Of a stretch of DNA of 64,000 nt, positions 3,681 through 23,924 are shown piece after piece. The notes beneath the pieces are model-generated. The model saw only the letters and a list, made by a program, of their open reading frames with translations, searched no databases and had not been told where the DNA came from. The position numbers and the translations under genes were made by a program. Positions within the stretch are counted from its first letter, which is position 1, and the number at the start of each line of letters is the position of its first letter. The DNA comes from Burkholderiales bacterium (GTDB lineage: Bacteria > Pseudomonadota > Gammaproteobacteria > Burkholderiales > JACQAP01): NCBI GenBank assembly GCA_035275265.1, contig DATENC010000004.1:75843-139842 (forward strand), given 5' to 3'.

Positions 3681-4972
3681 GCAGGAGTTCCTTGCGGTTG
3701 TGCTTCGGTACCATTCGCCTGCGCGCGCTGGGCACGGCCCAGCCAGAGGCCAAGCGCGATCCACGCCGCTGCGAGCGGAAAAGCCACGGCGGCAAGCGCG
3801 CCCAATCCCATGCCCAGCCGCCCGAGAAGTCCCTCGCTTTGCGCGCCGACCAGATCTCCCGTGCGATACACGAACGTGTCGATGAACGCCTTTGCCTTGT
3901 AGCGGTCAGCGCGCGGCACCACAGTGAAAAGAGTCTCGCGCGCCGGCCGCATAATGCCACGCTGCACGGCGCGGAAGGTGGCCTCGAAAGCGATCAGTGC
4001 CGCGAGTGATCCTGCGATCGCCAGACCCAGAAAGCCCAGCACGGCGGTCAGCGGCAACAGGGCCAGCGTCAATGGCACCCCCAGGCGCTTCATCAGGTGT
4101 CCCGTGACGATCAGTTGCAGGACCAAGGTCGTCACTTGTGTGATGAGGTCGATGTGCGCGAACATCGTCGTGCGCGTGTCGACGTCGGTTCCCAGCGCGG
4201 CGACCATCTGCAGGCGCGTGAAATACAGGAAAGTGACCATGATCGCAAGGATTAGCACGTAGCCGCAGATGCCCAGGAGGTAGGGCGAACGGGCCACCGA
4301 CTGCAACCCCTGCCAGGCGCTGCCGCCGATCACCGCATGCTCCTCGCGCACGACGCCGGGCTGGGCAACTTCGGGCCGCAGCCGCGTGACCCACCAGGCC
4401 GCACCGAGCGCGAGCACGAGGAACGCCGCCGCGACGAGCAGTAACGCTGGCGTGCCGAGCGGTTTGGCCAGTTGGCCCGCGAGCCACGGTCCAAAGATTG
4501 CTCCCAGGGTTCCGCCCACCGCAATGGCGCCGAAGAATCGCTTGCCCTGGTCGAGCGTGAAACGGTCCGCCATCAGCGCCCAGAACAACATCGTGGCGAA
4601 CAGGTTGAACACGCTGAACCACACGTAGAACACCTGGCCGGTTCGCTGTCCGACGCTTTCGGGTGTAAGGACCAATAGCAAATAGAACGCCACCAGCCCG
4701 AAGGCGAAGAAAAGGTAGGTCGCGTTGACGAAGACGAGGCGCCGGAACCGGCTCACCAGCCAACCGAACACCGGGTTCACCAGCAGCGTCACTAGCACCG
4801 TGCCCACGAACAGCCAGCGCAGTGCTTCGATGCCGCGCTGCATGCCGAGGGCCTCGCGCGCGGGCCGTATCACCATCAGCGCGGTGAGCACGCAGAAAAA
4901 GAACAAGCCGGCGACAAGCGCCGGTCCGACTTCCTCGCGGCGGATGTTGGTGAAGCGCTGCAGGAAGGTCAT
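3677..4972 (-). CDS. MFS-type membrane transporter, Npt1/Npt2 (ATP/ADP-translocase-like) subgroup
   Basis: 431 aa with about 12 hydrophobic segments. The N-terminus (IRREEVGPALVAGLFFFCVLTALMVIRPAREALG) resembles nucleotide-transporter-like MFS proteins. First gene of a three-gene overlapping operon. Confidence 0.65.
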   Translation of the reverse strand: MTFLQRFTNIRREEVGPALVAGLFFFCVLTALMVIRPAREALGMQRGIEALRWLFVGTVLVTLLVNPVFGWLVSRFRRLVFVNATYLFFAFGLVAFYLLLVLTPESVGQRTGQVFYVWFSVFNLFATMLFWALMADRFTLDQGKRFFGAIAVGGTLGAIFGPWLAGQLAKPLGTPALLLVAAAFLVLALGAAWWVTRLRPEVAQPGVVREEHAVIGGSAWQGLQSVARSPYLLGICGYVLILAIMVTFLYFTRLQMVAALGTDVDTRTTMFAHIDLITQVTTLVLQLIVTGHLMKRLGVPLTLALLPLTAVLGFLGLAIAGSLAALIAFEATFRAVQRGIMRPARETLFTVVPRADRYKAKAFIDTFVYRTGDLVGAQSEGLLGRLGMGLGALAAVAFPLAAAWIALGLWLGRAQRAQANGTEAQPQGTPA

Positions 4973-4975
4973 GAC

Positions 4976-5240
4976 AGGGACGAGGGAAGAGGGACGAGGG
5001 GCGAGAGCCGAGAGGGACTAAGGGAGATCACAGCCGGAGGGTCAATGAGTGAAGGGTAAGAGAACCGGATACGAGTGACAAGTGACAAGTGACGGCGAAT
5101 GGCAGTGAAGGGTGTGACACCTCTCCGGGTGCATGTGAGGGTGCCCCGCAAGGGGATTCCCACAAGGGGATACCGGCCTTCGACCATAACCGGCCTTCGA
5201 CCATAACCAGCCTTTGGCCATAAATGAGTGAAGAATGAAC
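4976..5240. repeat. mosaic word-repeat locus R3, the largest, containing all module types
   Basis: G-heptads, GTGACAA words (5075-5092), reverse D motif 5113-5136, and reverse E block with a 17-nt unit CCGGCCTTCGACCATAA in 2 copies plus 1 degenerate copy. 5141-5201 is identical to the reverse complement of 18932-18992. Confidence 0.95.
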
Positions 5241-5383
5241 ATCAACTGCTTTTCACCTTTTACAAACGCCAGAGATTTCGTATGCTTTGAGCGTAGCCTA
5301 TGAACACATGGACTATGCCGTGCGGTTGCGACTGCGGCGCTCGGCCCACATCTTCAGACCTTATAACTCAGGAGAAGAACATC

Positions 5384-5815
5384 ATGACGAGGAAGTCACT
5401 ATTGCTTGGTCTTTCGCTATTTGCCGCCGCTGCGTTCACCTACCCCGCTGCGGGTGCAGGGGTCGGAACGATGACCGCTGCCGATGAATTGCAATGGCAG
5501 GAGATGGCGCCCGGTTCGCCGCTAAAACTCGTGGTGCTCTGGGGTGATCGCAGTAAGGGTGAATACGCGATGCTTCTGAAGATGCCCGCCGGGTTTGTCG
5601 CGCCGATTCACGCTCACACCGGGGACTACTACGGTATGAACTTGACGGGAACCTGGCGCCACTCCTTTGACGGTGTCGCGGAAAAGACCATGCCACCGGG
5701 CTCCTATGTGTTTCAACCCGGGATGGGAATGCACGGTGATTCCTGCGTGGGACCCGAAGACTGCATTTTGTTCGTTCATCAACACGTGAAGGGCGATTTC
5801 ATTCCAAAGCAATAG
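5384..5815 (+). CDS. secreted cupin domain protein
   Basis: ATG at 5384 after AGGAGAAG. Signal peptide MTRKSLLLGLSLFAAAAF, then a cupin-like HAHTGDYYG...GxxxH core. Confidence 0.65.
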   Translation: MTRKSLLLGLSLFAAAAFTYPAAGAGVGTMTAADELQWQEMAPGSPLKLVVLWGDRSKGEYAMLLKMPAGFVAPIHAHTGDYYGMNLTGTWRHSFDGVAEKTMPPGSYVFQPGMGMHGDSCVGPEDCILFVHQHVKGDFIPKQ

Positions 5816-5926
5816 ACGCTGCCTTTAGGCTTCCGTTTCCGGTTTCGCTGAAACCATCGATCGCTTCTCGGCGCCGCGCGCTGGTTGCACACAAATGTAG
5901 CCGGGCGGCAAATGAGGGAGAAAGTC

Positions 5927-6976
5927 ATGCCACGAAAGCTGGGTCACAAGGAGCCGCAGCAATTCACCCGTCGCCGATTCCTGGGAGCAGCGGCAGCAGG
6001 TGCGCTGGCTTCCGGTTCGCTGGGTAGCGCTGAAGCACTGGGCGCAGCTCCAGAGGGCTGGCCGATGACCGAAAAGTGGTTTCCGTCACGTTGGGGCGCA
6101 GGCGATCAGGCAGGCGCTTCCAATCTGATGACCTCACAGAAAGTGCTTGAGGCCACGAGCCTGATCAAGGTCGGGAAAGTCCACAGCTTGGGACGTGTAT
6201 ACGAAGCAGGTATGCCCTTTTTCGGAACACGCGGCTGGAACCTTAAGATTCCGAGCGCGCCTTTTTACGGACCGGCCGGTCGGAACAAACTTATTGCCAA
6301 TGAAGAATACCTTTGCGCGGAGATCGGACAAGTTGGGACACAGTTCGATGGCTTGTCTCACATCGGTGTAGAGACCAAAGGTCCGCACGACAGCTCCGGC
6401 AAGCTTTACTACAACGGGTTCAATGGCACCGATGTCCATGGCGCGTTTGGCATGAAGAAGCTCGGTATCGAGCATGTCAAGCCGCTTGTGACACGAGCGG
6501 TGATCTTCGACGTGAAAGGATTGAAAGGTCGAAACCTGGAGAAGGGGGAAGAAATTAGCGCGCAGGACCTCCGGGACGCACTTGCCCGTCAACGGCTAAG
6601 CGAATCCGACTTCAAGGAGGGCGACGTCGCGCTCGTGCGTTGCGGCTGGGGTGATCAGTGGATGGTGGTCGACAACAAGAAATACTACGACGGCGAGCCA
6701 GGGGTGGGCCTCGATGCGTCCCAGTGGCTGGTGGATAAAGGGGCTTGCCTGGTCGGGGCCGACAATTGGGGCGTGGAGGTGATTCCGAACCCGGATCGCG
6801 ACCTGAACTTTCCGTGTCACCATTTGCTGCTGACGATGAACGGGGTATTCATGTTCGAGAACCTGAATCTGGAAGGCCCCGTGCGGGACGGCACCTGGAT
6901 CGGTGCATTTTTCTTTAGTCCCGTTCCCGTGAAGGGCGCAACAGGATCCCCAGGAAATCCGCTTTTTATTGTTTAG
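5927..6976 (+). CDS. cyclase family protein (kynurenine-formamidase-like fold) with a Tat signal
   Basis: ATG at 5927 after GAGGGAGAAAG. TRRRFLGAAAAGALASG twin-arginine signal. Cyclase-family core, but the usual HxGTHxDxPxH motif reads QVGTQFDGLSH. Confidence 0.65.
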   Translation: MPRKLGHKEPQQFTRRRFLGAAAAGALASGSLGSAEALGAAPEGWPMTEKWFPSRWGAGDQAGASNLMTSQKVLEATSLIKVGKVHSLGRVYEAGMPFFGTRGWNLKIPSAPFYGPAGRNKLIANEEYLCAEIGQVGTQFDGLSHIGVETKGPHDSSGKLYYNGFNGTDVHGAFGMKKLGIEHVKPLVTRAVIFDVKGLKGRNLEKGEEISAQDLRDALARQRLSESDFKEGDVALVRCGWGDQWMVVDNKKYYDGEPGVGLDASQWLVDKGACLVGADNWGVEVIPNPDRDLNFPCHHLLLTMNGVFMFENLNLEGPVRDGTWIGAFFFSPVPVKGATGSPGNPLFIV

Positions 6977-7118
6977 TCAACCTTTACTTGCTCACCCTCA
7001 CAGGCTTGCAGGTGTTCTCTTGGCGTCTTCGGGCCTAGAATAATTGCGCGCTGCGTAACCGTATCGTTCTGTCCGGGGCGCCGCCTGAACGGATTTATAC
7101 AGCCGGGAGAGCGTACAG

Positions 7119-8732
7119 ATGCTGGACTGGATCAAGAAGGACAACGGCCGTCCGGACCATCCGCTGCGCAATCCAGCGGCGGCCGCAAAGCTGCTTGCCG
7201 AAGTACGCGACTTCGATCCACTCACGGCGCTGAACGAGCTGAGCGCGTGGCTTGATGCGGTCAAGGGCGCCCCCAACAACGACGAAACAGTCCGCGGCGA
7301 GATTCTGTCTCTGATCCAGGAAGCGAGCAGCGCGCACGTATCCGCGCTATTGGCGCAATTTCTCGTGCCGCACAAAGATCATCGGGCGCCACGCGGGTCG
7401 GACTGGAACACCCTTCACCGTTACGTTGTGGGGCTGACGGGCGCGCTCACCGTGTCGGCCAGAATTCTGCTGACACAATCGGCGACGACCCCTTCGCTCC
7501 AGCTTCCCGGAGCAGCAGGCGCCGCGCGGGGAATTCACGCCTCTCGCACACTGGCGAAAATCTATCTCGTTCGCTACTTCAGCGTCCCGCCCAAGCTGTG
7601 GCGGCTTGCGTATGCAGTTCATGCCGACGCGGAGAAGGCTGGTTGCGCAACAACGCCCGTTCGCATGCACGCCACACAGAAAACGTCAACGAGCGTGACA
7701 CAGGAGTTGCTGCGGATGCTGATGCTGCAGTCAAGTTCGCCGGAGATGATGTCGCCCGAACATATCGAGGTTGCCGATCATGTGATCGAGCAACTGGGCG
7801 GAGATTTTACGCTGCGCCCGCGCGGCGTCGCCGACAACCCTTTCTGTTTCGATCCGGCGAGCGACCTGGCACCGCACCGCGCGCCCGCACAGCCGCCCAA
7901 TCCGGATACCGGAATTCGCTACTTCGGGGCAGGAACGGGATACGATGCCCTGGATCGACTGCACAAGCAGTTGGTGTCGACAGGGATCGCGGATGGCAAG
8001 CTCTCGGGCAAGGACATTCCTGTCCACACGCAAATCTCGGTCATCAAGCAATTGCTCGCGTTCTGGGGTCAAGCGTCTCCGTACTTCCCACCTGCCCGCA
8101 CGCCTGCTACGGGCCCGCTGCAGGTCGTTCAGGGCTATGCACAGATCTGGCAGCACCTGTCGCACGTTGGATCCGCTGCCACCGAGCTCGCGCTGGTGGA
8201 AGACGGCGACGTCGCAACGCAGCCCCCGGAAACGTGGGCTCTCCACGACACTGGCGGCAACGAACTCGGCGCGGAGATTCCGCAGCGATCGAGCGACTGG
8301 GTGCGATGCGGCGACCTTGTCGGCATCACGATGCCTGGCAGTGACGAGTGCTGGCTCGGCGTGATCCGCTCCATGCATGCTGAGCCCGATCGCAAGCGGC
8401 ACGCCAACATCTACGTCATGAGCCACCTTCCGCAGGCGGTGGAGATGCGCCCGGTCATCGCGAAGGGCGAAGTGAACATCCTCTCGGAGGCTGCGGCGCG
8501 GCAGTTCGGCTTCAAGAGCGTGCACGCGATCATCGTGTCAGACGGTGCCGGAGCGCCGCAAAATGCGAACTTTCTGTTGCCACCCGGCAGCTGGGAGGAG
8601 GGCCGCGTTTACGAAGCGACGATTGGGGGAGCTCCGCATTTCCTCCGCAGCCTTCTCCTACTGCGGCACGGCGACGATTTTGTGCGGGCGACGTTCGAGT
8701 GGGTGCAGAAAAGCAGTGAAGGACAGGTGTGA
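7119..8732 (+). CDS. hypothetical protein (537 aa), no confident domain
   Basis: Long ORF with coding-like composition. Its stop TGA lies in the first word of repeat locus R4. The C-terminal part (WALHDTGGNELGAEI...CWLGVIRSM) is faintly PilZ-like, which is very tentative. Confidence 0.6.
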   Translation: MLDWIKKDNGRPDHPLRNPAAAAKLLAEVRDFDPLTALNELSAWLDAVKGAPNNDETVRGEILSLIQEASSAHVSALLAQFLVPHKDHRAPRGSDWNTLHRYVVGLTGALTVSARILLTQSATTPSLQLPGAAGAARGIHASRTLAKIYLVRYFSVPPKLWRLAYAVHADAEKAGCATTPVRMHATQKTSTSVTQELLRMLMLQSSSPEMMSPEHIEVADHVIEQLGGDFTLRPRGVADNPFCFDPASDLAPHRAPAQPPNPDTGIRYFGAGTGYDALDRLHKQLVSTGIADGKLSGKDIPVHTQISVIKQLLAFWGQASPYFPPARTPATGPLQVVQGYAQIWQHLSHVGSAATELALVEDGDVATQPPETWALHDTGGNELGAEIPQRSSDWVRCGDLVGITMPGSDECWLGVIRSMHAEPDRKRHANIYVMSHLPQAVEMRPVIAKGEVNILSEAAARQFGFKSVHAIIVSDGAGAPQNANFLLPPGSWEEGRVYEATIGGAPHFLRSLLLLRHGDDFVRATFEWVQKSSEGQV

Positions 8733-8826
8733 GGGACGAGGGGCGAGGGACGAGGGTAGTGACAAGTGACGAGTGACAAGTGATGGGCCTAGCGGCAGTA
8801 AGGGAAAAACGGGAAGAACTGCAGGC
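8714..8826. repeat. mosaic word-repeat locus R4 (G-heptads + GTGAC heptads)
   Basis: GAGGGACGAGGGGCGAGGGACGAGGG followed by AGTGACAAGTGACGAGTGACAAGTGA, then CTAGCGGCAGTAAGGGAAAA and GAACTGCAGG. Confidence 0.9.
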
Positions 8827-8853
8827 GAAAGCATTATTGCTAGCGCACCGGCA

Positions 8854-9765
8854 TCACGGTCTGTCTGGCGTCGGCGTGGGGCTGGGTGGTGCAGGCACAG
8901 GCTGCGGACGGGGGTCGGACCCGCCTCTATTGATATCCTTTAGACACTCCTTGTGCGCCTTTTCACACTTGTCAACGGCAGCACTATGAGTGCCTAAGCA
9001 ATCCGGGCGCAAAGGAGAGAGCTTCCTCCTGTCCAGACATTTCTGATAGTTGCTCTCAGCCCGCCGTTTGCAACTGGCGTAGGGGCCTTGACACTTCAGG
9101 GCTGGACAGGTCTTTCTCAAGGTCTTGATGTATTCGACGCCCCGGCGCTGTATGAGATGTTCAGTGTTGTATCCGTATTCGCCGCTGCCAAACACCCAGT
9201 CTTCGCACCTCGCCTTGAATGCCCGTGGGAAGCTGCTTGGCAAGCCGCACGACTCGAATGACTTCGTTGTTTCGTCCTGCCCATCGGCGTTACAGTCGCA
9301 TGTAATCTCGCCGGAGTAGAAAACAGAACCCGGCGCTGCTGCCGGGTCTTTCTTGCAGTGATCCTCGGCACTGGAACGATCGGCAGCGGAATAAGGGGAT
9401 GACCATCCGCAGCTCGCGATGGATTGGCCGCTTCCGGCCGCCGCTTTTGCCTCGTGGTCCTCCACCTGTGCCGCGAGCGCGATTGACACCTCGGCTGGAA
9501 ACCCGGCGAGCACGTCCGCGATCTGGACCATACCCCCGCGGCACAAGCCGGCGCACCTGATGATGCTTCCCGCCCCCTGATTCTTCAGAACATGCGAAAG
9601 TACGACGACCGCGGCCGGTGATTTATCGCAGAACACATTGACTTGGTATATCTGATCGGCCCGTGCAGCGGAGGCGACGAAAACGCTTGCGGCGAGAAAG
9701 CCCAGTGCCGTTAGCCGGGAAAGCAGCAAATGGGTCAGGCACATACTTTCGGTTGGTCTGTCCAT
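8854..9765 (-). CDS. secreted cysteine-rich hypothetical protein with a Pro-rich C-terminal tail
   Basis: ATG at 9765 after GGAGAAG. Signal peptide ...LGFLAASVFVASAARA-DQ, about 19 Cys in the mature part, C-terminal RPQPVPAPPSPTPTPDRP. Confidence 0.65.
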   Translation of the reverse strand: MDRPTESMCLTHLLLSRLTALGFLAASVFVASAARADQIYQVNVFCDKSPAAVVVLSHVLKNQGAGSIIRCAGLCRGGMVQIADVLAGFPAEVSIALAAQVEDHEAKAAAGSGQSIASCGWSSPYSAADRSSAEDHCKKDPAAAPGSVFYSGEITCDCNADGQDETTKSFESCGLPSSFPRAFKARCEDWVFGSGEYGYNTEHLIQRRGVEYIKTLRKTCPALKCQGPYASCKRRAESNYQKCLDRRKLSPLRPDCLGTHSAAVDKCEKAHKECLKDINRGGSDPRPQPVPAPPSPTPTPDRP

Positions 9766-9856
9766 AATCTTCTCCGCATCGGACGTTAGGATGAAGGCCT
9801 TAAGTGCTGCTGAGAGAGTGAGCGTACTACGGGATCTCGTCCGTGCAACCGTACGA

Positions 9857-10429
9857 TCATTTCTTGGGGGTGTAAGTGAATTTCTGCCCGCCGATGCTTG
9901 CTTCGTACATCAGCCCACCCTTGGCAACAGTGAACGTCGCCATGCCTTTGTTGTAAGAGCCGGCAGTGGTGGCGTCATGTTTGCCTCCGCTGGCGCTGGT
10001 GGAGGTGCCGGCTGTGTTCGCGGCGGCCGATGCGCCGGCCGTGATGGCGACCGCGGTCGCCTGGACGCCGAACTCGAACTTGCCGGAGGTGAATTCGTCG
10101 AAGGCGCGCTGGTCCTGAAAGAACACGATCTGGCTGTAGCCCTGGCCGCCGAACTGCCAACCAACCGTTAGCTGTTTCATCGACGTGTTACCGACGTATG
10201 CTCCGTTCTTATAGACCCGGCCTTTGCCGTAGGCACCGCCGATGCCCACGCCGCCTTTGCCGATCGTCGGGAAAACTGCGTAACCGTAGCTGTGGTCGAA
10301 AAAACCCGAACTCGCTCCGGCCTCCTTGAATATCTTGATGGTATCCGTGTAATCGTCCGCCCAGACGCTAGTCGAGGAGCTGATCAACAACAGCAGTGCT
10401 GCGAAAAGGCCATATCCAAGTCGTTTCAT
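9857..10429 (-). CDS. SYLF (DUF500/Ysc84-like) lipid-binding domain protein, secreted
   Basis: Start at MKRLGYGLFAALLLLISS (signal peptide). Gly-rich SYLF-like core (GKGGVGIGGAYGKG, VGWQFGGQGY). The longer ORF upstream runs into repeat R5. Confidence 0.75.
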   Translation of the reverse strand: MKRLGYGLFAALLLLISSSTSVWADDYTDTIKIFKEAGASSGFFDHSYGYAVFPTIGKGGVGIGGAYGKGRVYKNGAYVGNTSMKQLTVGWQFGGQGYSQIVFFQDQRAFDEFTSGKFEFGVQATAVAITAGASAAANTAGTSTSASGGKHDATTAGSYNKGMATFTVAKGGLMYEASIGGQKFTYTPKK

Positions 10430-10438
10430 GTTAGAGAC

Positions 10439-10496
10439 CGTGAATGAGTGAATGAGTGAAGGGTAAGAGCGAAAACGGAGACTAGGGGCGAGGAAG
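10439..10496. repeat. mosaic word-repeat locus R5 (GTGAATGA octads)
   Basis: GTGAATGAGTGAATGAGTGAAGGGTAAGAG...ACTAGGGGCGAGGAAG. Confidence 0.8.
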
Positions 10497-10636
10497 CTCC
10501 ATAAGCGCCTCACTGAACATCCCGCTTTTCAAAAGTCATCTGCCGGTCTTGTGGTTGCATCAAGGAACTGAACTTCGACGTGCCATTTATCACCACGTCT
10601 GCGTCAGGATTCTACTTCGATCTTGATGAGAAAAAC

Positions 10637-10737
10637 AGGGACGAGGGGAGAGGGAAGAACTGCAGGGCTAGAAGTTAGGAAAGGCTCTAGTGATGTTACC
10701 CTTCACCCTCACATGCACCCGGAGGGGTGTCACTTCT
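10637..10737. repeat. mosaic word-repeat locus R6 (A + D modules)
   Basis: AGGGACGAGGGGAGAGGGAAGAACTGCAGG, then ACCCTTCACCCTCACATGCACCCGGAGGGGTGTCAC (D motif at 10710-10733). Confidence 0.9.
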
Positions 10738-10769
10738 TCACGCCACCACCACGGCGCAAGGGGATGTCA

Positions 10770-11588
10770 ATGAAATCGATCAAGCGCGAGCAATACGAGG
10801 AAGCCCTCGAAGCACTGCACACCGAGCTGATCAACCTGCAGCACTGGATCATTGCCAATAACCAGCGCGTGGCCGTTATTTTCGAGGGGCGCGATGCCGC
10901 CGGCAAGGGCGGTGTGATCAAGGCCATCGAGGCACCGCTCAACGATCGCTACGTGCGCACCGTCGCGCTTTCGAAACCCAATGAACTTGAGCGCAGCCAG
11001 TGGTACTTCGAGCGCTACGCGGCCCAGTTGCCGAGTGCTGGTGAACTTGTCCTCTTCGATCGCAGCTGGTACAACCGCGCCGGTGTCGAACTGGTCATGG
11101 GCTTCTGCACACCCGCCCAACACAAGCAGTTCCTGAAGGACTGCCCGGCGTTCGAACGCCTGATCACCAACGACGGCCTGATCCTGCTCAAGTACTGGCT
11201 CTGCGTCGACCAGGAAGAACAGGAAGAACGCTTCGCCGAACGGGCGAAGGATCCCGCCAAGCGCTGGAAACTGTCTCCAATCGACATCAAGGCGCGCGAG
11301 AAATACGCCGCATACGGCAAAGTGCGCGACAGGATGCTGCGTGCGACCCACACCGATTACGCACCCTGGTACGTGGTCAACTTCAACGACCAGAAACGCG
11401 GTCGATTGAACCTGATCGATCACCTGCTCAAGCGGCTGCCTAAGCGCGAATCTCCGGCCCCGGAACTGTCTCTACCCAAACTCTCCGGCAAGCCTCTCAA
11501 GGAACACATCCCTCGCGGTTTTCTCATTGAAGAGGGTGTGTGGAGAGGGGTGAGGGGTGAGGGGAGGGCAGGGAACAGTGACAAGTGA
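10770..11588 (+). CDS. ppk2: polyphosphate kinase 2
   Basis: PPK2 motifs VIFEGRDAAGKGG (Walker A), FDRSWYNR and a lid region. Start at 10764 or 10770 (AAGGGG upstream). The last ~20 aa and the TGA stop are encoded by repeat R7. Confidence 0.85.
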   Translation: MKSIKREQYEEALEALHTELINLQHWIIANNQRVAVIFEGRDAAGKGGVIKAIEAPLNDRYVRTVALSKPNELERSQWYFERYAAQLPSAGELVLFDRSWYNRAGVELVMGFCTPAQHKQFLKDCPAFERLITNDGLILLKYWLCVDQEEQEERFAERAKDPAKRWKLSPIDIKAREKYAAYGKVRDRMLRATHTDYAPWYVVNFNDQKRGRLNLIDHLLKRLPKRESPAPELSLPKLSGKPLKEHIPRGFLIEEGVWRGVRGEGRAGNSDK

Positions 11589-11594
11589 CGAGTG
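11531..11594. repeat. mosaic word-repeat locus R7, inside the 3' end of ppk2
   Basis: GAGGGGTGAGGGGTGAGGGGAGGGCAGGGAACAGTGACAAGTGACGAGTGG. It provides the ppk2 C-terminal tail and TGA stop. Confidence 0.85.
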
Positions 11595-11603
11595 GAATCG
11601 TGC

Positions 11604-12389
11604 ATGATGATGTGCATGCACAACATCTTTATCGCATTGGTGCTGTTTGCCGCCTTGCCGTTGCCGGCGTTGTCGGCGGATCTAACGGTCGATCAGGTAG
11701 GGAAGATCCTTTCCAATCCGGGGCATGAGGGCACCGATGCGCTTGCTGGAAAAGATCTATCCCGTCTGGATTTGAGCGGCCGGGATTTCCGGCGGGCAAA
11801 CCTGACCCGGAGCAGTTTGTTCGCCAGCAAGCTCGTACAAAGCAATTTCTCCGGTGCCAAGCTCTCCGGCGTCAATCTGAACGGCGCCTGGCTGATGGGG
11901 ACGGACTTTTCGGATGCCGATCTTTCTCGTGCAACGTTGATGTCTGTCGTGATCCTCGGCGGGGAAATTACGGTCCGGCCGAACTTCAGGAACGCCAACC
12001 TCTCCGATGCCCGCATCATCGCAGAACTGGACGGTGCCGATCTTTCGCACGCGGACTTGTCCCGGGCGCGCCTGGGCGTTGACATCAAGAATCAGGGAAT
12101 GGGCCAGATGCGCACCAACCTCACCAAGGCGAATCTCGAGGGCGCGGATCTTACCGAAGCCGATCTGAACAGGACGCTGTTGGCGTTTGCCAACCTGAAA
12201 GGTGCAAGCCTGCGCGGGGCCAATCTGTTTCGAGCGGACCTTTCCGGTGCGGACTTGAGCGGGGCGGATGTGACCGGAGTGAATCTGGATGAGGCCAATA
12301 TCAACGGAACGATCTTCAAGGGCGTGCGCGGATTGGATTCGGTAAAGGGTCTCGACCGGACCGAACATCGGGACCGTGCGAAGTTTTAG
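11604..12389 (+). CDS. pentapeptide repeat protein with signal peptide
   Basis: N-terminal hydrophobic signal (IFIALVLFAALPLPALSA), then long runs of A(D/N)LxG-type pentapeptides. Start ambiguous between 11592 and 11616. Confidence 0.8.
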   Translation: MMMCMHNIFIALVLFAALPLPALSADLTVDQVGKILSNPGHEGTDALAGKDLSRLDLSGRDFRRANLTRSSLFASKLVQSNFSGAKLSGVNLNGAWLMGTDFSDADLSRATLMSVVILGGEITVRPNFRNANLSDARIIAELDGADLSHADLSRARLGVDIKNQGMGQMRTNLTKANLEGADLTEADLNRTLLAFANLKGASLRGANLFRADLSGADLSGADVTGVNLDEANINGTIFKGVRGLDSVKGLDRTEHRDRAKF

Positions 12390-12505
12390 AAGGGACGAGG
12401 GGCGCCCCGCAAGGGGATTCCCACAAGGGGATACCGGCCTTCGACCATAAATGAGGGAAGTGTGGCCCCCTCGTCCCTCTCCACTCGTCCCTCGCCCCTC
12501 GTGGC
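12390..12505. repeat. mosaic word-repeat locus R8 (G arm, reverse E block, C arm)
   Basis: AGGGACGAGGGGCG, then GCCCCGCAAGGGGATTCCCACAAGGGGATACCGGCCTTCGACCATAAATGAG (12403-12455, a 47-nt match to R3), then CCCTCGTCCCTCTCCACTCGTCCCTCGCCCCTCG. Confidence 0.9.
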
Positions 12506-12573
12506 CTAAGGTATTTACCTGATATCGCTGTAAGGAATGCACTACACGCGTTATGCGAATTGGGTAAACCGGA

Positions 12574-12602
12574 TTGACTTGCGACGAAAATTAGGGATCA
12601 AT
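12574..12602 (+). promoter_or_regulatory. putative sigma70-type promoter for WYCV paralog 1
   Basis: TTGACT, 17 nt, ATCAAT, located 33 nt upstream of the GTG start. Confidence 0.35.
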
Positions 12603-12634
12603 GTGGGCATCAACTTTCGTAGCGAGCGCGACAA

Positions 12635-12928
12635 GTGTCCTGGTACTGCGTGCAGATTCCTCCCCGGGCATCGTCGAACGCTTCGGCATGGAGTCTCATC
12701 TCAATGGTTCGCGACACGCATAGGAAAGCTGGCGCGCCCGAGGACGTGGCGGTGTACCACGAATTTACGAAGGACAGGCACAACCTTTTTTACTTCTCGC
12801 CAGGATGTGCAGCAGTCTTTCGGGATCTGTTGAAGTTCTTCAAAGCATCCCCAAGTGAGCAACCGCCATTGTATGAAAGCCTCACGCGCGTCCTGGGACC
12901 CACTACGCCGCCGGCAGAGCATTGGTAG
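12635..12928 (+). CDS. small hypothetical protein, 'WYCV' paralog 1
   Basis: GTG start. 97 aa. Aligns with the 13855-14118 product: M(S/G)WYCV, G.PED..VY, (Y/F)FSP..A, KF. The paralogy supports this frame over the overlapping 12537-12833 ORF. Confidence 0.55.
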   Translation: MSWYCVQIPPRASSNASAWSLISMVRDTHRKAGAPEDVAVYHEFTKDRHNLFYFSPGCAAVFRDLLKFFKASPSEQPPLYESLTRVLGPTTPPAEHW

Positions 12929-12937
12929 AAACAAAGA

Positions 12938-12962
12938 GGCCGCGGTGCGGCCCCTTCGTTTG
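12938..12962 (+). terminator. possible weak terminator after WYCV paralog 1
   Basis: GGCCGC / GCGGCC stem with a GGT loop, followed by CCTTCGTTT. Confidence 0.35.
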
Positions 12963-13030
12963 CAGTGTCTGAGTCATACGGCGGCCATGCGCGCAGCGAT
13001 CTCCCCGCACGTCATCCCGCCCTCGTAGTC

Positions 13031-13426
13031 CTAGTGTCCGACCTTTCCTTTTCTGCCCCACATAGGCAGCGGCGGATTCTCGTCCACGACTTCGTAGGTA
13101 TACACGGCACTAATAGGGAGGTAATCGCCGTTCTCATCCACGATCATTGTGACGCGGTCGTCGGGCCCCGACAGCACCTGATAACCGAAGCTGCCGGTTC
13201 TCTCGTGCTCGTTCGCCCCACGCGCCGCAGCTTCGACCGTAGCCTCTTTGGCGGCAACCAGCAGCGCGCGCTCGCCTTCGATCTCCTCAATATCAGCGGC
13301 AATGCCGACGAGTGCGTCTTGCTCGGCTTCGATTTTTCCATGGGCCTGCTCTTCCCTGATGTGCGCAGCCTCAGCGGACAGTGCGGTTATTCGCGCGGTC
13401 AAGGCTTCGATCTGTTGCTGAAACAC
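13031..13426 (-). CDS. hypothetical protein with an N-terminal coiled coil (131 aa)
   Basis: GTG start without a clear SD. Acidic heptad-like N-terminal half and a distinct C-terminal domain. Preferred over the antisense ORF 12965-13432, which looks like a GC artefact. Confidence 0.45.
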   Translation of the reverse strand: MFQQQIEALTARITALSAEAAHIREEQAHGKIEAEQDALVGIAADIEEIEGERALLVAAKEATVEAAARGANEHERTGSFGYQVLSGPDDRVTMIVDENGDYLPISAVYTYEVVDENPPLPMWGRKGKVGH

Positions 13427-13485
13427 CAGTGAGCGGGGTGCGACGCTCTCGTCACGCCAAGAGGTGAATCGGATCTTGATGAGCT

Positions 13486-13698
13486 TCAGGCAGCGCCTCC
13501 CAAGGAAGTCTGGCGGTCCTTCTCGTGCTGCTCATCGAGCAACGCGGCCAGATCGATACCCATGAAGGTCGTGCCCCGCAGAAAACGCGAACCCGGCGTG
13601 ACCTGTATGCGCCCGCCCGGAAGTAACAACTCGGCGGGCTCGACGCAGGTCCAAGCACCGCTGGGTTCCTTCTTGAAGTGTGTTATGAAGTTCTGCAA
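13486..13698 (-). CDS. small hypothetical protein (70 aa)
   Basis: TTG start preceded by TGGAGAA 5 nt upstream. Lies 59 nt upstream of the 131-aa ORF on the same strand. Confidence 0.45.
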   Translation of the reverse strand: MQNFITHFKKEPSGAWTCVEPAELLLPGGRIQVTPGSRFLRGTTFMGIDLAALLDEQHEKDRQTSLGGAA

Positions 13699-13805
13699 TC
13701 GTTCTCCAGGTAATGAATCGGCTAATGACGCATGCCTAGTTCCAAGAACAACTCAGACCATATCCGGCGGCATCGGTTTAACTGGTGCGTGAGTAATTGG
13801 GACTA

Positions 13806-13834
13806 TTGCCGAGTTGCCAGCCCCTCGAATAATG
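13806..13834 (+). promoter_or_regulatory. putative sigma70-type promoter for WYCV paralog 2
   Basis: TTGCCG, 17 nt, ATAATG, located 21 nt upstream of the ATG. Confidence 0.35.
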
Positions 13835-13854
13835 TGCACGAAAGGGAAAAGTAC

Positions 13855-14118
13855 ATGGGCTGGTATTGCGTACACGTTGACAACATGCGGCTTACGGCTG
13901 CGGTAAACACTACCTTTCGCAAAATGCTCCTGGACGCGTATCGGGAGCACGGCGAACCCGAGGACTGCCGCGTTTACCTCAGAACCGATCCCGACGGCGC
14001 CTTTTCCTACTTCTTTTCCCCTGCTGCCGCCAAGACTCTAGAAAGGTTTATCAAGTTCTGGGAAGGTTTTGGTTGCCCCGACCCTACGAATTTGAAGCAG
14101 ATGGAAGTCGTGCTCTGA
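13855..14118 (+). CDS. small hypothetical protein, 'WYCV' paralog 2
   Basis: ATG at 13855 after AAAGGGAAAAG. 87 aa. Paralogous to the 12635-12928 product. Confidence 0.6.
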   Translation: MGWYCVHVDNMRLTAAVNTTFRKMLLDAYREHGEPEDCRVYLRTDPDGAFSYFFSPAAAKTLERFIKFWEGFGCPDPTNLKQMEVVL

Positions 14119-14494
14119 GCGAGGCATGAGCCGACTGGATCACCGCTTTTGCCAGGCAAGTAGCTGAATACGGTCATTTCAGGACGTTACTGTCGCAGTT
14201 AAGGCCGCGTGCTCGGATGCCCCTCCGTGCAACTCGAGACTCAACTCTCGACGCGCGAACGTTGCGGCCTACTTACTTCCGGTCCTGGGTACCCACCGCA
14301 CGCCCAAGGTGGGACGGACCAGACAACATTCCGCAAGAAGGAAATCTCTACGCGGTCGCATTTTCGCCGACGGTGCTGTCGGCATCCGCTCATTGCGAGG
14401 TTGCAATCCAAAGATCCGCTTGCTCGCCCGTCGATCGCAGGTTGATTCGCTAGCAGCAGGTGAAAGGGCGGGGGTCATAACCAAGGTGTGCCAG

Positions 14495-15271
14495 ATGTGC
14501 GGAAAATCAGATGCTGGTGGCGTGCGCGCACCGGCCGTAATAGTTATCGCAGCCATTTCCGGCGTGCTCGCAATGTCCCAGCCGCGATACGCCGACTGCG
14601 CCCCGATCAAGATTCACTCGCCCAGCGTGACCAAAGGGAAGAATGAAATCGAGTATCTTGGGTTTCGCGACATCGACAAAGATGATGAACGGGACGGCGC
14701 GGAGATGCATTCCATCGCGATAGGACGCGGCTTCACGGACTATTGGCTTAGTGAACTTTCCCTGGTATACGCGAAAGAACCGGGTGCTTCGCTCGAGTAT
14801 GACTCGCTCGAATGGGAAAATCTGTTTCGGCTGTCGAAGAAGGATCAATACTGGGCCGAATTCGGACTGTTCACACAGTACGAAGCGACTGAAGACGGTG
14901 CGGACGAGATCCTTATCGCCCCAATCGTCGAGAAGACCGTGGATCGATGGGTGGGAACGATGAACCTGTTCTTCGGGCGCAAGGTCGGCAGCGAAGCGGA
15001 ATCGGGCACTAGTTTCAGCTATGCCGCAAGACTGAGATACTCAATGCACAAGCAATTCGCACCCGCAATCGAGATCTTTGGAGACCTCGGGCGAATTGGA
15101 GAATTCGACTCCTTCAACGAGCAGGAGCACTGGGCAGGGCCCGCCTTCTACGGACAGATAGGCATGGGCGGTTCCAACAAAGTGGTTTACAGCGCGGCAT
15201 ACTTGTTCGGCGTGACATCGGTTTCAAGCGACAACCGCGCGATTCTGCGCATCGAATACGAATTCTTCTAA
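14495..15271 (+). CDS. putative outer-membrane beta-barrel protein
   Basis: Signal peptide, alternating amphipathic beta-strand pattern, and a C-terminal aromatic residue (RIEYEFF). Start chosen at MCGKSD. Confidence 0.55.
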   Translation: MCGKSDAGGVRAPAVIVIAAISGVLAMSQPRYADCAPIKIHSPSVTKGKNEIEYLGFRDIDKDDERDGAEMHSIAIGRGFTDYWLSELSLVYAKEPGASLEYDSLEWENLFRLSKKDQYWAEFGLFTQYEATEDGADEILIAPIVEKTVDRWVGTMNLFFGRKVGSEAESGTSFSYAARLRYSMHKQFAPAIEIFGDLGRIGEFDSFNEQEHWAGPAFYGQIGMGGSNKVVYSAAYLFGVTSVSSDNRAILRIEYEFF

Positions 15272-15305
15272 AGGGAGGTCTTACCTAGGCGAGACGGCAT
15301 ACGGC

Positions 15306-15392
15306 GGTGAAGGTGTGACACCCCTCCGGGTGCATGTGAGGGGGAAAGACCGGTGACGAGTGACAAGTGACGGGTGACAAGTGACCGGTGAC
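15306..15392. repeat. mosaic word-repeat locus R9 (reverse D + GTGAC heptads)
   Basis: GTGACACCCCTCCGGGTGCATGTG (15315-15338), then GGTGACGAGTGACAAGTGACGGGTGACAAGTGACCGGTGAC. Confidence 0.9.
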
Positions 15393-15468
15393 TCCCGCGG
15401 ATATACTGGTGGCGTCAATCGTGCCGGCCGTGACCGGCATCTTTTTTCATTCGCTGCCGGGAATTGTC

Positions 15469-16239
15469 ATGACTCAGGATCGTCTCGCCATCTACCCCAG
15501 CCTGAAGCACAAGGTCGTTTTCATTACCGGAGGTGGATCGGGGATCGGTGCCTCCATCGTCGAAGGATTTGTGCGCCAGAGCGCGAAGGTCGGGTTCGTT
15601 GACATCGACGCCGCCGCCAGCAACAAACTTGTGCAGAAACTCAAGGGCACCGGACAGGCGCCGCGATTCATCCGCTGCGATATCCGCGACATCGGGCAAC
15701 TGCGCGCGGCCATCGATAGGGTGCAGTCCGAATTGGGTGACATCGGCATCCTGGTCAACAACGCCGCACGGGACGATCGCCATTCGATCGAAAGCGTCAC
15801 GCCCGAATTCTGGGACGAGCGCGTTGCCGTGAACCTTCGCCACCAGTTCTTCGCTTCGCAGGCCGTCGCCGATCAGATGAAGCGCCTGGGCGGCGGCTCG
15901 ATCATCAATTTCGGTTCCATTTCCTGGATGACCGCAACCGGCGGCATGCCGGCATACACCACCAGCAAAGCCGCGGTCCACGGCCTGACGCGCGGGCTGG
16001 CGCGCGACCTCGGGCCGTTCAACATCCGCGCAAACACAGTGTCCCCCGGCTGGGTCATGACCGAGCGGCAGAAAAAACTCTGGGTGACACCGGAGGGCGA
16101 GAAACAGATGGACCAATTGCAGTGCCTGAAAGGCCGGCTACAGCCCGAAGATCTTGCCAACATGGTGCTGTTCCTCGCGTCGGATGACGCGAAGATGATC
16201 ACGTCGCAGAATTTCGTCGTGGATGCGGGATGGGTGTAG
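15469..16239 (+). CDS. SDR family oxidoreductase
   Basis: TGGGSGIG cofactor motif, NNAA, and the YxxxK catalytic motif (YTTSKAAV). Confidence 0.85.
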   Translation: MTQDRLAIYPSLKHKVVFITGGGSGIGASIVEGFVRQSAKVGFVDIDAAASNKLVQKLKGTGQAPRFIRCDIRDIGQLRAAIDRVQSELGDIGILVNNAARDDRHSIESVTPEFWDERVAVNLRHQFFASQAVADQMKRLGGGSIINFGSISWMTATGGMPAYTTSKAAVHGLTRGLARDLGPFNIRANTVSPGWVMTERQKKLWVTPEGEKQMDQLQCLKGRLQPEDLANMVLFLASDDAKMITSQNFVVDAGWV

Positions 16240-16240
16240 T

Positions 16241-16410
16241 ACGAGGGAAGAGGGAAGAGGGAAGAGGGACGAGGGAAGAGGGAAGGGGAAAACCAATTCT
16301 CTTCACGAGGCGCCTTCACTGCTTTCCCCCGTCACTTGTCACCTGTCACCCGTCACTCCTTTTCCCTACTACCTTTCCCTCGCCCCTCTTCCCTCGTCCC
16401 TCGCCCCTAG
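16241..16410. repeat. mosaic word-repeat locus R10 (long G arm, reversed GTGAC words, complementary C arm)
   Basis: (GAGGGAA)n GAGGGACGAGGGAAGAGGG on the left. GTCACTTGTCACCTGTCACCCGTCAC in the centre. CCCTCGCCCCTCTTCCCTCGTCCCTCGCCCC on the right, whose reverse complement shares a ~19-nt match with the left arm. Confidence 0.9.
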
Positions 16411-16456
16411 CCAGTGCCCGCTATACTTGTGACATCCGCCTCGCTCTCCGTTCTCC

Positions 16457-18097
16457 ATGTATCAACATTACTTTGGCCTTGCCGGAGCGCCGTTCTCCAT
16501 CGCCCCGGACCCGCGCTATCTTTACCTGAGCCAGCGTCACCAGGAGGCCCTGGCGCATTTGCGCTATGGCGTGCAAGGGGATGGCGGGTTCGTGCTACTC
16601 ACGGGCGAGGTCGGAGCGGGCAAGACCACGGTATGCCGCTGCCTTCTGCAGCAGATTCCAGCGAACTGCGATGTGGCCTATATCTTCAATCCCAAGCTCA
16701 CGGTCGGAGAGTTGCTCACGAGCATCTGCGTCGAATTCGACATCGCGGTCCCACCCGGCAATGTCAGCGTCAAGGTGTTCGTGGATTGCATCAACGCTTT
16801 TCTGCTCGACGCCCATGCCAGGGACAGGCATACGGTGCTGATCATCGACGAGGCACAGCACCTTTCGCCCGTCGTGCTGGAGCAGATGCGCCTGCTTACC
16901 AATCTGGAAACGAACGAACGCAAGCTGCTGCAAATTATCCTGCTCGGCCAGCCCGAACTGGCGCTGATGCTGGAGCGCCCGGAGCTGCGGCAGGTCAGCC
17001 AGCGCATCGTCGCACGCTATCACCTGGGGCCGCTGACCAGGCGGGAAGTCGCAGCCTATGTCCGGCATCGGCTCGAGATATCGGGCGCTCAGCGGCAGCT
17101 GTTTCCCTCGGCCTTGATGGACCGCGTGCACCGCTTGAGCGGCGGCGTTCCCCGGGTCATCAACATGCTGTGCGACCGCGCGCTGCTAGGTACCTTTGTG
17201 CAAGGCAAGGAGCGGGTGGATCGCGCGACACTCGCGCAAGCAGCGCGCGAGGTATTTCACCAGGCCCCGCGCCGCAGCCTGATGGCACCTTTGCTGATCA
17301 TTCTGATCCTTGCGCTTGCCGGCGCGCTGGCGGCGGCGATTTATCGACTCGAACTGCGTGAATCTGCGATAACCACGGCGCCCTTGCCCGTGGCAAAACC
17401 CGCTGTCCAGACAGTTGTCGCGGTACCAGCCAAAGAGCCTCAGGTCAAAGAAGTCGAACCGGCAACGCCGTTGGCGGATAAGGTGGAATGGCCGGCGGAT
17501 CAACCGCGCGCGCGTAGTGAGGAGCTGGCTTACGCCGCGTTGTTCCGGGCATGGGGTGCGGTGTACGAAGGGGTGGACGCCTGCAAGCAGGGTGAACCCC
17601 TGGGACTACGCTGTCGCAGCGCCCGCGGCGGATTGGATGAATTGCGTCAATTGAACCGGCCCGCGGCACTCGTGATGCGAGACGAACATGGTCGGAATTT
17701 CCACGCCGCTCTGATCGCGCTTGACGACAAGTCCGCCACATTCGTTGTCGGGAGCGAAACCAGGACAGTCGCGCTTGGCGCCCTGGCAACGCAATGGGCC
17801 GGGCAGTACATGTTGCTGTGGCGCATGCCGCCGGATGCGCACGAGAATATCCGCTTAGGCGAGCGCGGACCGGCCGTGCAATGGTTGATCAAGCAGCTCG
17901 CGCAGGCGCACGGACAGGTTGCAGATACCGGCAAGGCGCCACTTTTCGATGATGCTGTGGAGCGTCAGGTGAAACAGTTTCAACTCGCCCAGGGATTGAT
18001 TCCGGACGGTCTCGTCGGCCTCCAGACTTTGATCCGTCTCGCCGCGGTGGGGGATCGATTGGCGCCGGAACTTCAGCCTCGGCAAGGATGGCAATAG
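16457..18097 (+). CDS. gspA: ExeA/GspA-like AAA ATPase with a C-terminal peptidoglycan-binding domain
   Basis: MYQHYFGL..PF N-terminus, Walker A GEVGAGKT, IIDEAQ Walker B, a TM segment, and a C-terminal PG_binding_1-like VKQFQLAQGLIPDGLVG. Confidence 0.8.
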   Translation: MYQHYFGLAGAPFSIAPDPRYLYLSQRHQEALAHLRYGVQGDGGFVLLTGEVGAGKTTVCRCLLQQIPANCDVAYIFNPKLTVGELLTSICVEFDIAVPPGNVSVKVFVDCINAFLLDAHARDRHTVLIIDEAQHLSPVVLEQMRLLTNLETNERKLLQIILLGQPELALMLERPELRQVSQRIVARYHLGPLTRREVAAYVRHRLEISGAQRQLFPSALMDRVHRLSGGVPRVINMLCDRALLGTFVQGKERVDRATLAQAAREVFHQAPRRSLMAPLLIILILALAGALAAAIYRLELRESAITTAPLPVAKPAVQTVVAVPAKEPQVKEVEPATPLADKVEWPADQPRARSEELAYAALFRAWGAVYEGVDACKQGEPLGLRCRSARGGLDELRQLNRPAALVMRDEHGRNFHAALIALDDKSATFVVGSETRTVALGALATQWAGQYMLLWRMPPDAHENIRLGERGPAVQWLIKQLAQAHGQVADTGKAPLFDDAVERQVKQFQLAQGLIPDGLVGLQTLIRLAAVGDRLAPELQPRQGWQ

Positions 18098-18099
18098 AC

Positions 18100-18885
18100 A
18101 TGTCCTATATCCTCGACGCTTTGCGGAAATCCGACCAACAGCGCCAGCGCGGTGCGGCACCGACCTTGCTTGCGGTGCAGACTGCGGCGATAGCGCCCAA
18201 ACAGCCCGCGTTGCTAACTTACGGCTTGCTCGCGGTTGTCCTGGTCGGTGCTGGCGTGGTGATCGGCTGGCTGCGCCCGTGGCAAACCCAGCAAGCGGTT
18301 CCTCATACTCCGGTAGCAGTTATCGTGAAGCCGCTCGAATCGATCCCGCGCGTACAGGGGCCCGCGCCATCTGTAGTCGCGCCGCGGCCGCCGTCCCCGG
18401 AGTTGCAGGCAGCGCAAACAGAGTCCGCACCTTCTGAAACGGCGCCGCAGTCCAAGGACACGACGCAGCCCGCAGAAACGGCCGCCGCCGGATCTGGAAA
18501 AGCGCCGCCGGCGAAGGCGAAACCGCTCGCGCGCGCTAAACCGGAAATGGATGGTCCACCGCGCGAAACTGCTGCGACCGCGCCTGAGAAAGCGGCGGCA
18601 CCTGCGCCACAGCGGTCTGCTGACATTGCGGCGTCCGATGCCACCAGCGGACCACCGGTGATATCGATGGCAGAACTGCCACCCCAGGTCCGCGAGGCGC
18701 TTCCCGTAATGACGATTTCGGTTCATGGTTATTCCGACAACCCCGAAGGGCGTCTGGTCGGAATCAACTACCGGATACTTCGTGAAGGTGATTCCGTGGT
18801 CCCCGGTCTCGAGCTGCAGCAGATCACGCCCGATGGCATGATTTTCAGCTTCAAGGGATTTAGATTCCGTCGCGGAGTGAAGTGA
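18100..18885 (+). CDS. gspB: GspB/ExeB-like general secretion pathway protein B
   Basis: MSYILDALRKSDQQRQ N-terminus typical of GspB, one TM segment, and a Pro/Ala-rich linker. Starts 3 nt after the exeA-like stop. Confidence 0.6.
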   Translation: MSYILDALRKSDQQRQRGAAPTLLAVQTAAIAPKQPALLTYGLLAVVLVGAGVVIGWLRPWQTQQAVPHTPVAVIVKPLESIPRVQGPAPSVVAPRPPSPELQAAQTESAPSETAPQSKDTTQPAETAAAGSGKAPPAKAKPLARAKPEMDGPPRETAATAPEKAAAPAPQRSADIAASDATSGPPVISMAELPPQVREALPVMTISVHGYSDNPEGRLVGINYRILREGDSVVPGLELQQITPDGMIFSFKGFRFRRGVK

Positions 18886-19030
18886 AAAGGACAGGGGAGA
18901 GGGACGAGGGGTCACCCTTCACTCATTTATAGTCGAAGGCCGGTTATGGTCGAAGGCCGGTATCCCCTTGTGGGAATCCCCTTGCGGGGCACCCGCACAT
19001 GCACCCGGAGGGTGTCACGCCTTCACTTCT
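18876..19030. repeat. mosaic word-repeat locus R11 (forward E block x2 units + D motif)
   Basis: 18932-18992 is a perfect 61-nt reverse complement of 5141-5201. D motif at 18996-19018. Starts at the gspB-like TGA stop. Confidence 0.95.
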
Positions 19031-19039
19031 TGTGGTTCG

Positions 19040-23855: not shown

Positions 23856-23924
23856 CCGATCCGTTGTGCTACCCCTTGAAGGGCACGCCGCATCGAGCGT
23901 CAGTACGCGACAGTCGCCTTTGTT

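Follow-up and report, generated by a model that had tools for sequence, protein, structure and literature searches.

The hairpin-bearing block near 5.1 kb of the 64,000-nucleotide stretch of Burkholderiales DNA analyzed here (the window) is a copy from an undescribed, lineage-specific family of small modular repeats of uncultured soil Burkholderiales. As an explanation of the family we favor, at a probability of roughly 0.45, a mosaic repeat of the REP/BIME/BOX kind that would be recognized as a single-stranded hairpin and would have spread by copying or recombination together with replication slippage.

Modules and copies in the window

The strand of the repeat that reads TTATGG... is termed Y, and its complement P. 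The block is not a single element. It was found to be a mosaic of three independent modules, A (about 25 to 38 nt), B/B' (14-nt hairpin units), and C (a 17-nt unit), which recur separately and in varying order. Module A consists of CACATGCACCCGGAGGGGTGTCAC plus flanks, the B/B' units of ATCCCCTTGYGGGR, and module C of TTATGGYCGAAGRCCGG. C and B together form a constant 34-nt core, TTATGGYCGAAGRCCGGTATCCCCTTGYGGGRCA, which occurs five times in the window and is laid out as TTAT, a first hairpin (GGYC-GAA-GRCC), the linker GGTAT, and a second hairpin (CCCC-TTGY-GGGG). The module order is A-B-B'-C-C-C at 5.1 kb (P strand), A-C-B at 1.9 kb (Y strand), and B-B'-C-C-A in a relative (locus L029) downstream of an SDR gene; module A also stands alone at 10698, 15307, and 33587. 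Head to tail and in direct orientation, the C units repeat every 17 nt and the B' units every 14 nt, each in one to three tandem copies. The features are as follows:

1917-2011, + strand: block R2, with A at 1919-1954, C at 1967-1983, and B at 1984-2000; between convergent genes; 60.8 bits
4976-5093, + strand: purine-rich heptamer arrays (AGGGACG, 4.3 copies; AGTGACA, 2.9 copies) leading into block R3
5104-5141, - strand: module A copy of block R3, AGTGAAGGGTGTGACACCTCTCCGGGTGCATGTGAGGG on the + strand; 31 nt are 97% identical to 15312-15342; A consensus with one mismatch
5142-5189, - strand: B (5144-5155), B', and the first C unit of R3; covered by the exact 63-nt inverted match to 18932-18994
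5156-5189, - strand: 34-nt core of R3, the - strand reading TTATGGTCGAAGGCCGGTATCCCCTTGTGGGAAT; model R1, 56.3 bits, E=1.6e-18; partial B match at 5144-5155
5190-5223, - strand: an additional C unit (5190-5206) and a degenerate C unit (5207-5223, GGCC-AAA-GGCT stem); site of the 17-nt indel relative to the 18.9-kb copy
10698-10741, + strand: lone module A; repeat search, A consensus
12400-12455, - strand: block R8, with B, B', and one C unit, bracketed by inverted heptamers, 28 nt 3' of the stop of a pentapeptide-repeat gene
15307-15346, - strand: lone module A followed by AGTGACA heptamers; right edge of a 10.4-kb segment missing from L029
18887-18911, + strand: purine-rich heptamer arm abutting block R11, directly 3' of the stop of the T2SSB-domain gene
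18912-19027, + strand: block R11, between convergent T2SSB-domain and lactonase genes; heptamer, C'' (18927-18943), C (18944-18960), B' plus B (18961-18992), A (about 18993-19020), heptamer; 56.3 bits
23938-23971, + strand: block R12, one 34-nt core with the GGTC/GACC stem variant, 15 nt past the stop of a DctM gene; 61.4 bits
33587-33615, + strand: lone module A, a 1-nt deletion variant; repeat search

The perfect reverse complementarity described over 61 nt (5141-5201 and 18932-18992) is exact and extends over 63 nt, from 5139 to 5201 and from 18932 to 18994. A repeat search joined 5123-5206 to 18927-19010 in inverted orientation (84 nt, 98% identity), and the similarity of these two copies, put at about 125 nt in the earlier note, was confirmed over about 130 nt: the local alignment of 5104-5233 contained three substitutions and three indels, two of 1 nt and one of 17 nt, the last being a single additional unit carried by the 5.1-kb copy. 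The further stretch claimed near 12403-12455 was recovered as 12400-12450, 98% identical to 5139-5189, and the diverged versions claimed near 1957-2000 and 23938-23972 proved to be real in both the repeat search and a covariance model of the core (1967-2011, 60.8 bits; 23938-23982, 61.4 bits). This model detected exactly five full copies in the window, all within 1967-23971. The 17-nt unit CCGGCCTTCGACCATAA had nine matches in the window at up to three mismatches, compared to 0.21 expected. Its numbers vary between copies just as had been claimed, with two units plus one degenerate unit at 5173-5223 (tandem period 17, 3.1 copies in the 5.1-kb block), two at 18927-18960, and one each at 12434, 1967, and 23938.

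All five cores are intergenic and lie among ordinary chromosomal genes, the genes near the copies encoding ketopantoate reductase, an MFS transporter, cupin, pentapeptide-repeat, T2SSB-domain, lactonase, and GGDEF proteins, and a TRAP transporter. The window genes scanned included no member of a transposase Pfam family. Three cores point one way and two the other, and the window, with a GC content of about 60%, has a uniformly positive GC skew. An ENA assembly of the same organism (L041) was 99.98% identical across 16.7 kb holding three copies, and a Logan contig (L042) was 100% identical and ended within the 18.9-kb copy, as expected of a real repeat. The concern that the copies might be assembly artefacts was thus ruled out by these independent sequences and by the same composite in other MAGs and metagenomes.

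Several other sequences were observed at or between the repeats. At 5259-5334 lies a module of 75 nt that contains a promoter-like site (TTTACA, 16 nt, TATGCT). It recurs, 79% conserved, at 1011-1084 of locus L081, where it adjoins module A and the surrounding genes are different, and it may represent a further mobile module or a small element that is transcribed. A motif, AGAACTGCAGGG, recurs on the reverse strand at the edges of heptamer arrays (1840, 8815, 10655, and 29860), and a related linker ending in CCCTGTTTTTCTTCACCC connects the core to module A in L039, L058, and L081. Elsewhere, a 44-nt inverted repeat (25726-25769 and 25820-25863, 98% complementary, 50-nt spacer) lies between the DctQ and DctP genes, and the ENA contig L041 ends inside it. 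A C-rich 75-nt tandem repeat at 45576-45807 (2.5 copies, 78% identity) is probably a proline-rich coding repeat. Seven sizeable open reading frames of coding-like composition gave no Pfam match at E<=1e-5 (7119-8732, 8854-9765, 27166-27948, 28124-28795, 33532-34533, 34622-35338, and 41747-42349).

Hairpin pairing and array polarity

The block had been called hairpin-rich. Short hairpins do exist, and one of them has covariation support, but the block as a whole folds no better than shuffled sequence: RNAfold on whole blocks, both strands, gave z from -1.2 to +0.8 relative to dinucleotide shuffles. A single structured RNA was dropped as a candidate, since the whole-block minimum free energy was no better than that of shuffles. 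Terminator-like sites (a GC-rich stem of at least 5 bp plus a T tract) were absent from the block, where stems have 4 bp and no T run follows.

Hairpin 1 is real and is backed by compensatory changes. In a metagenome scan whose pattern left both stem halves free, it paired in 52 of 54 matches, with the stems GGCC/GGCC (21), GGTC/GACC (10), GGTC/GGCC (10), and GGTC/GATC (5), and more rarely GGTT/GACC (3), GGTT/AACC (2), and GTCC/GGAC (1); two cases only were mismatched. Across 36 distinct cores, 98.6% of the hairpin 1 cells pair and three of the four pairs are altered on both sides, pair 7-13 occurring in four types (UA, CG, UG, and GC). The covariation score was 0.176 compared to 0.080 for shuffled alignments, none of 500 of which reached it, and at most 0.068 when the partner was slid. 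Stems of the types GGGC/GCCC and GGCT/AGCC, with other loops, occur in diverged subfamilies. Within the window itself, GGCC/GGCC, GGTC/GACC, and GGTC/GGCC stand side by side, showing that pairing is kept rather than base identity. G.T wobbles favored the Y strand by copy count (18 versus 1), a preference that is weak by independent variant types and about even with secondary C units included.

For hairpin 2, the C-run and the G-run lengthen and shorten together in diverged copies; both search patterns had prescribed its 5' half (a freed version being, for example, GGYCGAAGRCCGGTATNNNNTTGNNNNNCA), and this concerted change does not amount to a fair covariation test. The TTAT 5' of hairpin 1 was present in 20 of 21 cases in the genome scan, where it was left free; T1, A3, and T4 were invariant in the aligned cores. 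The GGTAT linker is also invariant, which is little informative as both search patterns fixed it. Read on the opposite strand, hairpin 2 is preceded by varying bases (GGTG, AGTG, GGCG, and GATG).

No Rfam family matched anywhere in the window at gathering thresholds, and relaxed thresholds gave only weak matches, at chance level, in 4960-5300. Degenerate or orphan CRISPR repeats were considered, given that 5128-5163 weakly resembles the Rfam family CRISPR-DR36 and that CCCCGCAAGGGGAT also occurs within a Thermus CRISPR repeat. The DR36 match, at 20.5 bits, is well short of the gathering score of 38, and the part in common is a simple 14-nt hairpin. The units follow one another directly, every 14 or 17 nt, spacers and a regular 60 to 70 nt periodicity are absent, and no cas genes were found among the window genes scanned. 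A CRISPR remnant is effectively refuted by the missing spacer-repeat structure, and we assign it a practically negligible probability.

The blocks are embedded in a wider landscape of arrays. About half of the intergenic regions of the window hold tandem heptamers (GAGGGAC, GAGGGAA, AGTGACA, GGGTGAG, and GGGGATT) or an 8-mer, GTGAATGA; examples lie at 1849-1892, 8716-8783, 16243-16290, 27928-27965, 34526-34560, 37162-37229, and 60006-60031. The interval 42-59 kb is without heptamer arrays and has classical terminators instead. The arrays have a fixed polarity. Directly 3' of stop codons, the purine-rich strand was the sense strand in all 19 window cases judged by eye, and in 15 of 18 cases in an automated scan of the window and the other loci, the three exceptions being distal arms. 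The flanks of the cores are pyrimidine-rich on the TTATGG strand (34 versus 0 on the left, 36 versus 1 on the right), and cores within 60 nt of a stop codon stood in the P (purine) orientation in 15 cases versus 1. In many cases a pyrimidine arm comes after the purine arm, and such a pair folds as a long imperfect hairpin. Pairs of arms without a core (16240-16420, 37160-37300, 34520-34630, and 61985-62125) had z from -3.3 to -6.8 relative to shuffles, and these long hairpins may be 3'-end structures. GTGA-type heptamers put TGA in all three frames, and G3N4 arrays match the G-quadruplex motif.

This polarity is the ground of the main rival explanation, a cis-acting RNA of the 3' UTR, in which the cassette and its arms would fold in read-through transcripts and serve as a terminator or stabilizer, or provide RNase III or an RNA-binding protein with a platform. 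The sense-strand purine arrays after stops, the orientation of stop-proximal cores, and the stability of the core-less arm pairs all speak for such a role, and the covariation of hairpin 1 is compatible with RNA. Other observations speak against it. The common GGTC/GGCC variant would produce a C.A mismatch in the strand transcribed from the nearest gene, and the wobble-tolerant strand is the one opposite to that transcript. Cores occur in proximal as well as distal arms and, at 5.1 kb, in a divergent promoter region, so that no single RNA strand is consistently made; between co-directional genes their orientation relative to transcription was split 13 versus 10 (crude gene calls), from which no rule is claimed. 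Regions that bear a core are not unusually stable, with z from -0.1 to -2.1, and Rfam family, longer stems, and U tracts are all lacking from the 4-bp hairpins. We therefore consider a 3'-UTR RNA somewhat unlikely as the explanation of the repeat.

Distribution, identity, and turnover

Cores were also found in other MAGs and in metagenome contigs. Among 185,579 species genomes, a 23-mer, GGYCGAAGRCCGGTATCCCCTTG, was present in eight Betaproteobacteria/Burkholderiales MAG species and in no isolate genome except for an unrelated Streptomyces coding gene; the roughly 20 Streptomyces matches belong to one conserved coding gene with dissimilar flanks and were discarded as coincidence. Exact-pattern matches numbered only one to seven per MAG. 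The 54 matches of the metagenome scan lay on 51 soil or sediment contigs; in all, with duplicates removed, there were 72 distinct sequence contexts. The covariance model additionally detected diverged subfamilies. In one locus (L017, CAWJWT010000002.1, 100-4400), about ten diverged cores of a separate subfamily, with GGGC/GCCC stems and a second hairpin CCC-TTTA-GGG, lie within 8 kb, a local density far above that of the window. A blastn search against plasmids gave no match, and a literature search for the module sequences returned no relevant paper from the library covered. Homologues of the lactonase were at most 67% identical, with an exact look-up returning the same genome only, and an exact look-up of the T2SSB-domain protein returned no record; no close strains were obtained in this way.

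Three window copies and seven other loci (L005, L014, L065, L073, L076, L077, and L086) share a 51-nt composite, TTATGGTCGAAGGCCGGTATCCCCTTGTGGGAATCCCCTTGCGGGGC, without a single difference. In the MAG that contains L012 and L014, the T2SSB gene is only 77% identical to that of the window. Perfect identity is thus a property of the whole family, and it points to a family-wide constraint and not only to recent copying; as read from these sequences, it is no proof of a recent duplication. Two causes had been offered for the identity, recent copying or gene conversion on the one hand and strong selection on the other. Selection or constraint fits best.

Presence/absence polymorphism at orthologous intergenic sites, proposed as a check in the earlier note, was found when metagenome loci were taken for comparison. 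Orthologous spacers differ despite flanking genes that are 83-94% identical. At the 37.2-kb site, which has heptamers only in the window, L075 carries a core. The site at 60.0 kb, with heptamers and other sequence in the window, is occupied in L080 by B-B'-C-C plus A, and that at 27.0 kb, with heptamers in the window, is occupied in L081 by two cores and two A modules. In L048, module A takes the place of the 23.9-kb core of the window, and L012 carries an inverted core 3' of the T2SSB gene. Other sites are kept: L050 retains the A-C-B block of the 1.9-kb site between flanking genes 84% identical, and L057 retains the 12.4-kb site with a GGTT/AACC stem and two C units.

Larger differences accompany these. 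Gene order differs between the window and both L029 and L048 (genes 80-94% identical), and segments of 10.4, 6.4, and 1.8 kb (4973-15387, 14120-20500, and 22154-23972) are missing from relatives, every such breakpoint falling in a repeat-bearing intergenic region. Recombination between two direct A modules was considered for the 10.4-kb difference and is unsupported, the L029 junction being without module A.

Small size, intergenic position, and presence/absence at orthologous sites would also be expected of a classical MITE, which derives by deletion from an insertion sequence of the DDE-transposase type and has terminal inverted repeats and target-site duplications. The search for terminal inverted repeats, another check that had been proposed, found none: both block ends carry AGTGAAG in direct orientation, and the ends of the core, TTATGG... 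and ...GGGGCA, do not match each other in inverted orientation. No consistent duplication was seen at the core borders. In the filled and empty pairs (L075, L080, and L081 versus the window) no duplication could be called, as the number of flanking heptamers differs too, and the insertion borders cannot be fixed because the flanking arrays also vary in length. The internal units are direct tandem repeats, and no related insertion sequence was found in the window or the loci. An origin as a MITE is accordingly very improbable.

A different account of the turnover is that the blocks are a passive by-product of slippage and ectopic gene conversion among unstable heptamer arrays, with neither recognition nor function. 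Cores always lie in arrays of one polarity, as homology-driven exchange requires; tandem unit numbers vary, array length differs between relatives, and synteny breaks in repeat-bearing spacers. Such a process leaves three observations unexplained, namely the 51-nt identity across MAGs and metagenome contigs (one with the 77% identical flanking gene), the compensatory changes that keep hairpin 1, and the near-invariant TTAT. We regard it as quite unlikely.

Proposed recognition and comparison with known repeats

In the REP-like reading that we prefer, a trans-acting factor, presumably a protein, would recognize the core in single-stranded form, by the hairpin shape together with the unpaired TTAT and GGTAT, in a manner analogous to the recognition of REPs by the RAYT (Y1/HUH) enzyme. 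The substrate would be single-stranded DNA rather than RNA. The core would be copied into, or exchanged between, the strand-polarized heptamer arrays 3' of stop codons, and replication slippage would then alter the number of C and B' units. The host might benefit, for example, from hairpins at 3' ends. Recognition and spread of this kind would account for the covariation, the TTAT, the identity across genomes, the fixed polarity, and the turnover.

A RAYT-like open reading frame with the HUH...Y..NP motif was not found in 376 kb of window and loci, a motif regex being a weak test. The open reading frames between inverted core pairs (L045 and L052) are unrelated and include a BON-like protein. 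The mixed core orientation under a uniform GC skew does not fit a strictly replication-strand-specific Y1 mechanism. With insertion borders that cannot be fixed, homology-driven exchange without a dedicated enzyme would produce the same pattern. A bolder proposal is that the clade uses a two-part, hitherto undescribed intergenic "grammar", its cassette written and read by a putative dedicated, single-strand-specific protein that is not a RAYT. Its parts may be G-rich sense heptamer arrays after stops, often with an inverted C-rich arm, and the ultra-conserved TTAT-hairpin-GGTAT-hairpin cassette set within these arrays. We hold this to be unlikely; if true, it would be a new partnership of repeat and enzyme, not merely another REP family.

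Small intergenic repeats affect genome rearrangement, transcript ends, and assembly quality, and have been characterized in few cultured groups; in the present case, a soil lineage that is abundant and uncultured possesses a modular repeat system of its own. Its core is more conserved than the adjoining protein-coding genes, yet turns over fast at orthologous sites. Contigs break at the repeat: L042 ends inside a copy, and cores lie at contig ends in several loci. The 34-nt probe and the covariance model can be used to seek the partner protein and to trace the lineage in metagenomes. If the arms and the cassette set mRNA 3' ends, this would be an unusual solution for a high-GC bacterium.

Among known systems, the Correia elements (CREE/NEMIS) of Neisseria are small intergenic betaproteobacterial repeats that can form transcript hairpins. 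The repeat described here shows none of their features, which are a length of 100-155 bp, terminal inverted repeats of 26 bp, and duplication of TA.

The REP/BIME elements and RAYT of Enterobacteria and Pseudomonas offer a closer likeness. They too are short, lineage-specific, multi-copy extragenic hairpin repeats, often located 3' of genes and joined with other short motifs into mosaics (BIMEs). In REP/REPIN-RAYT systems, a RAYT gene in single copy has such repeats on its flanks. A REP is an imperfect palindrome of about 20-40 nt with many extragenic copies and a stem of about 10 bp with a bulge; the repeat described here is likewise extragenic and multi-copy, with 4-bp stems and the few exact-pattern matches per MAG given above. 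REPs have a conserved tetranucleotide, GTAG (or GTGG), 5' of the hairpin, and the shape of the hairpin matters (PMC3479197). In our repeat, TTAT precedes the covarying stem in a comparable position, and there is no GTAG. REPs occur as inverted REP/iREP pairs or REPINs (PMC3116915). Unlike REPINs, the units here are direct tandem repeats, and the few nearby inverted core pairs (L053, L054, and L056) are not the rule. Also unlike REP/BIME elements, the repeats are embedded in heptamer arrays.

The modular make-up resembles that of the BOX elements of Streptococcus pneumoniae, boxA-(boxB)n-boxC, which are intergenic, polymorphic between strains, and variable in the number of tandem internal modules (PMC3049150). 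The block shares with them the modular composite, the variable tandem internal units, the intergenic position, and the polymorphism. BOX differs in its modules of 45-59 nt, its terminal inverted repeats and target duplications, and its low-GC Gram-positive host, and has no sequence similarity to the block. Unlike BOX, the block has no fixed terminal modules; A lies on either side or is absent, and the order varies.

For the arrays, the nearest counterparts are the STRR of cyanobacteria and the TAACTGA repeats of Beggiatoaceae, abundant intergenic direct 7-nt repeats whose origin is unexplained and for which an action on transcripts has been proposed (PMC4679880). Those repeats are rich in AT and mostly occupy positions immediately upstream of start codons, whereas the heptamers described here are G-rich, stand on the sense strand after stop codons, are often accompanied by an inverted arm, and have a conserved hairpin cassette embedded in them.
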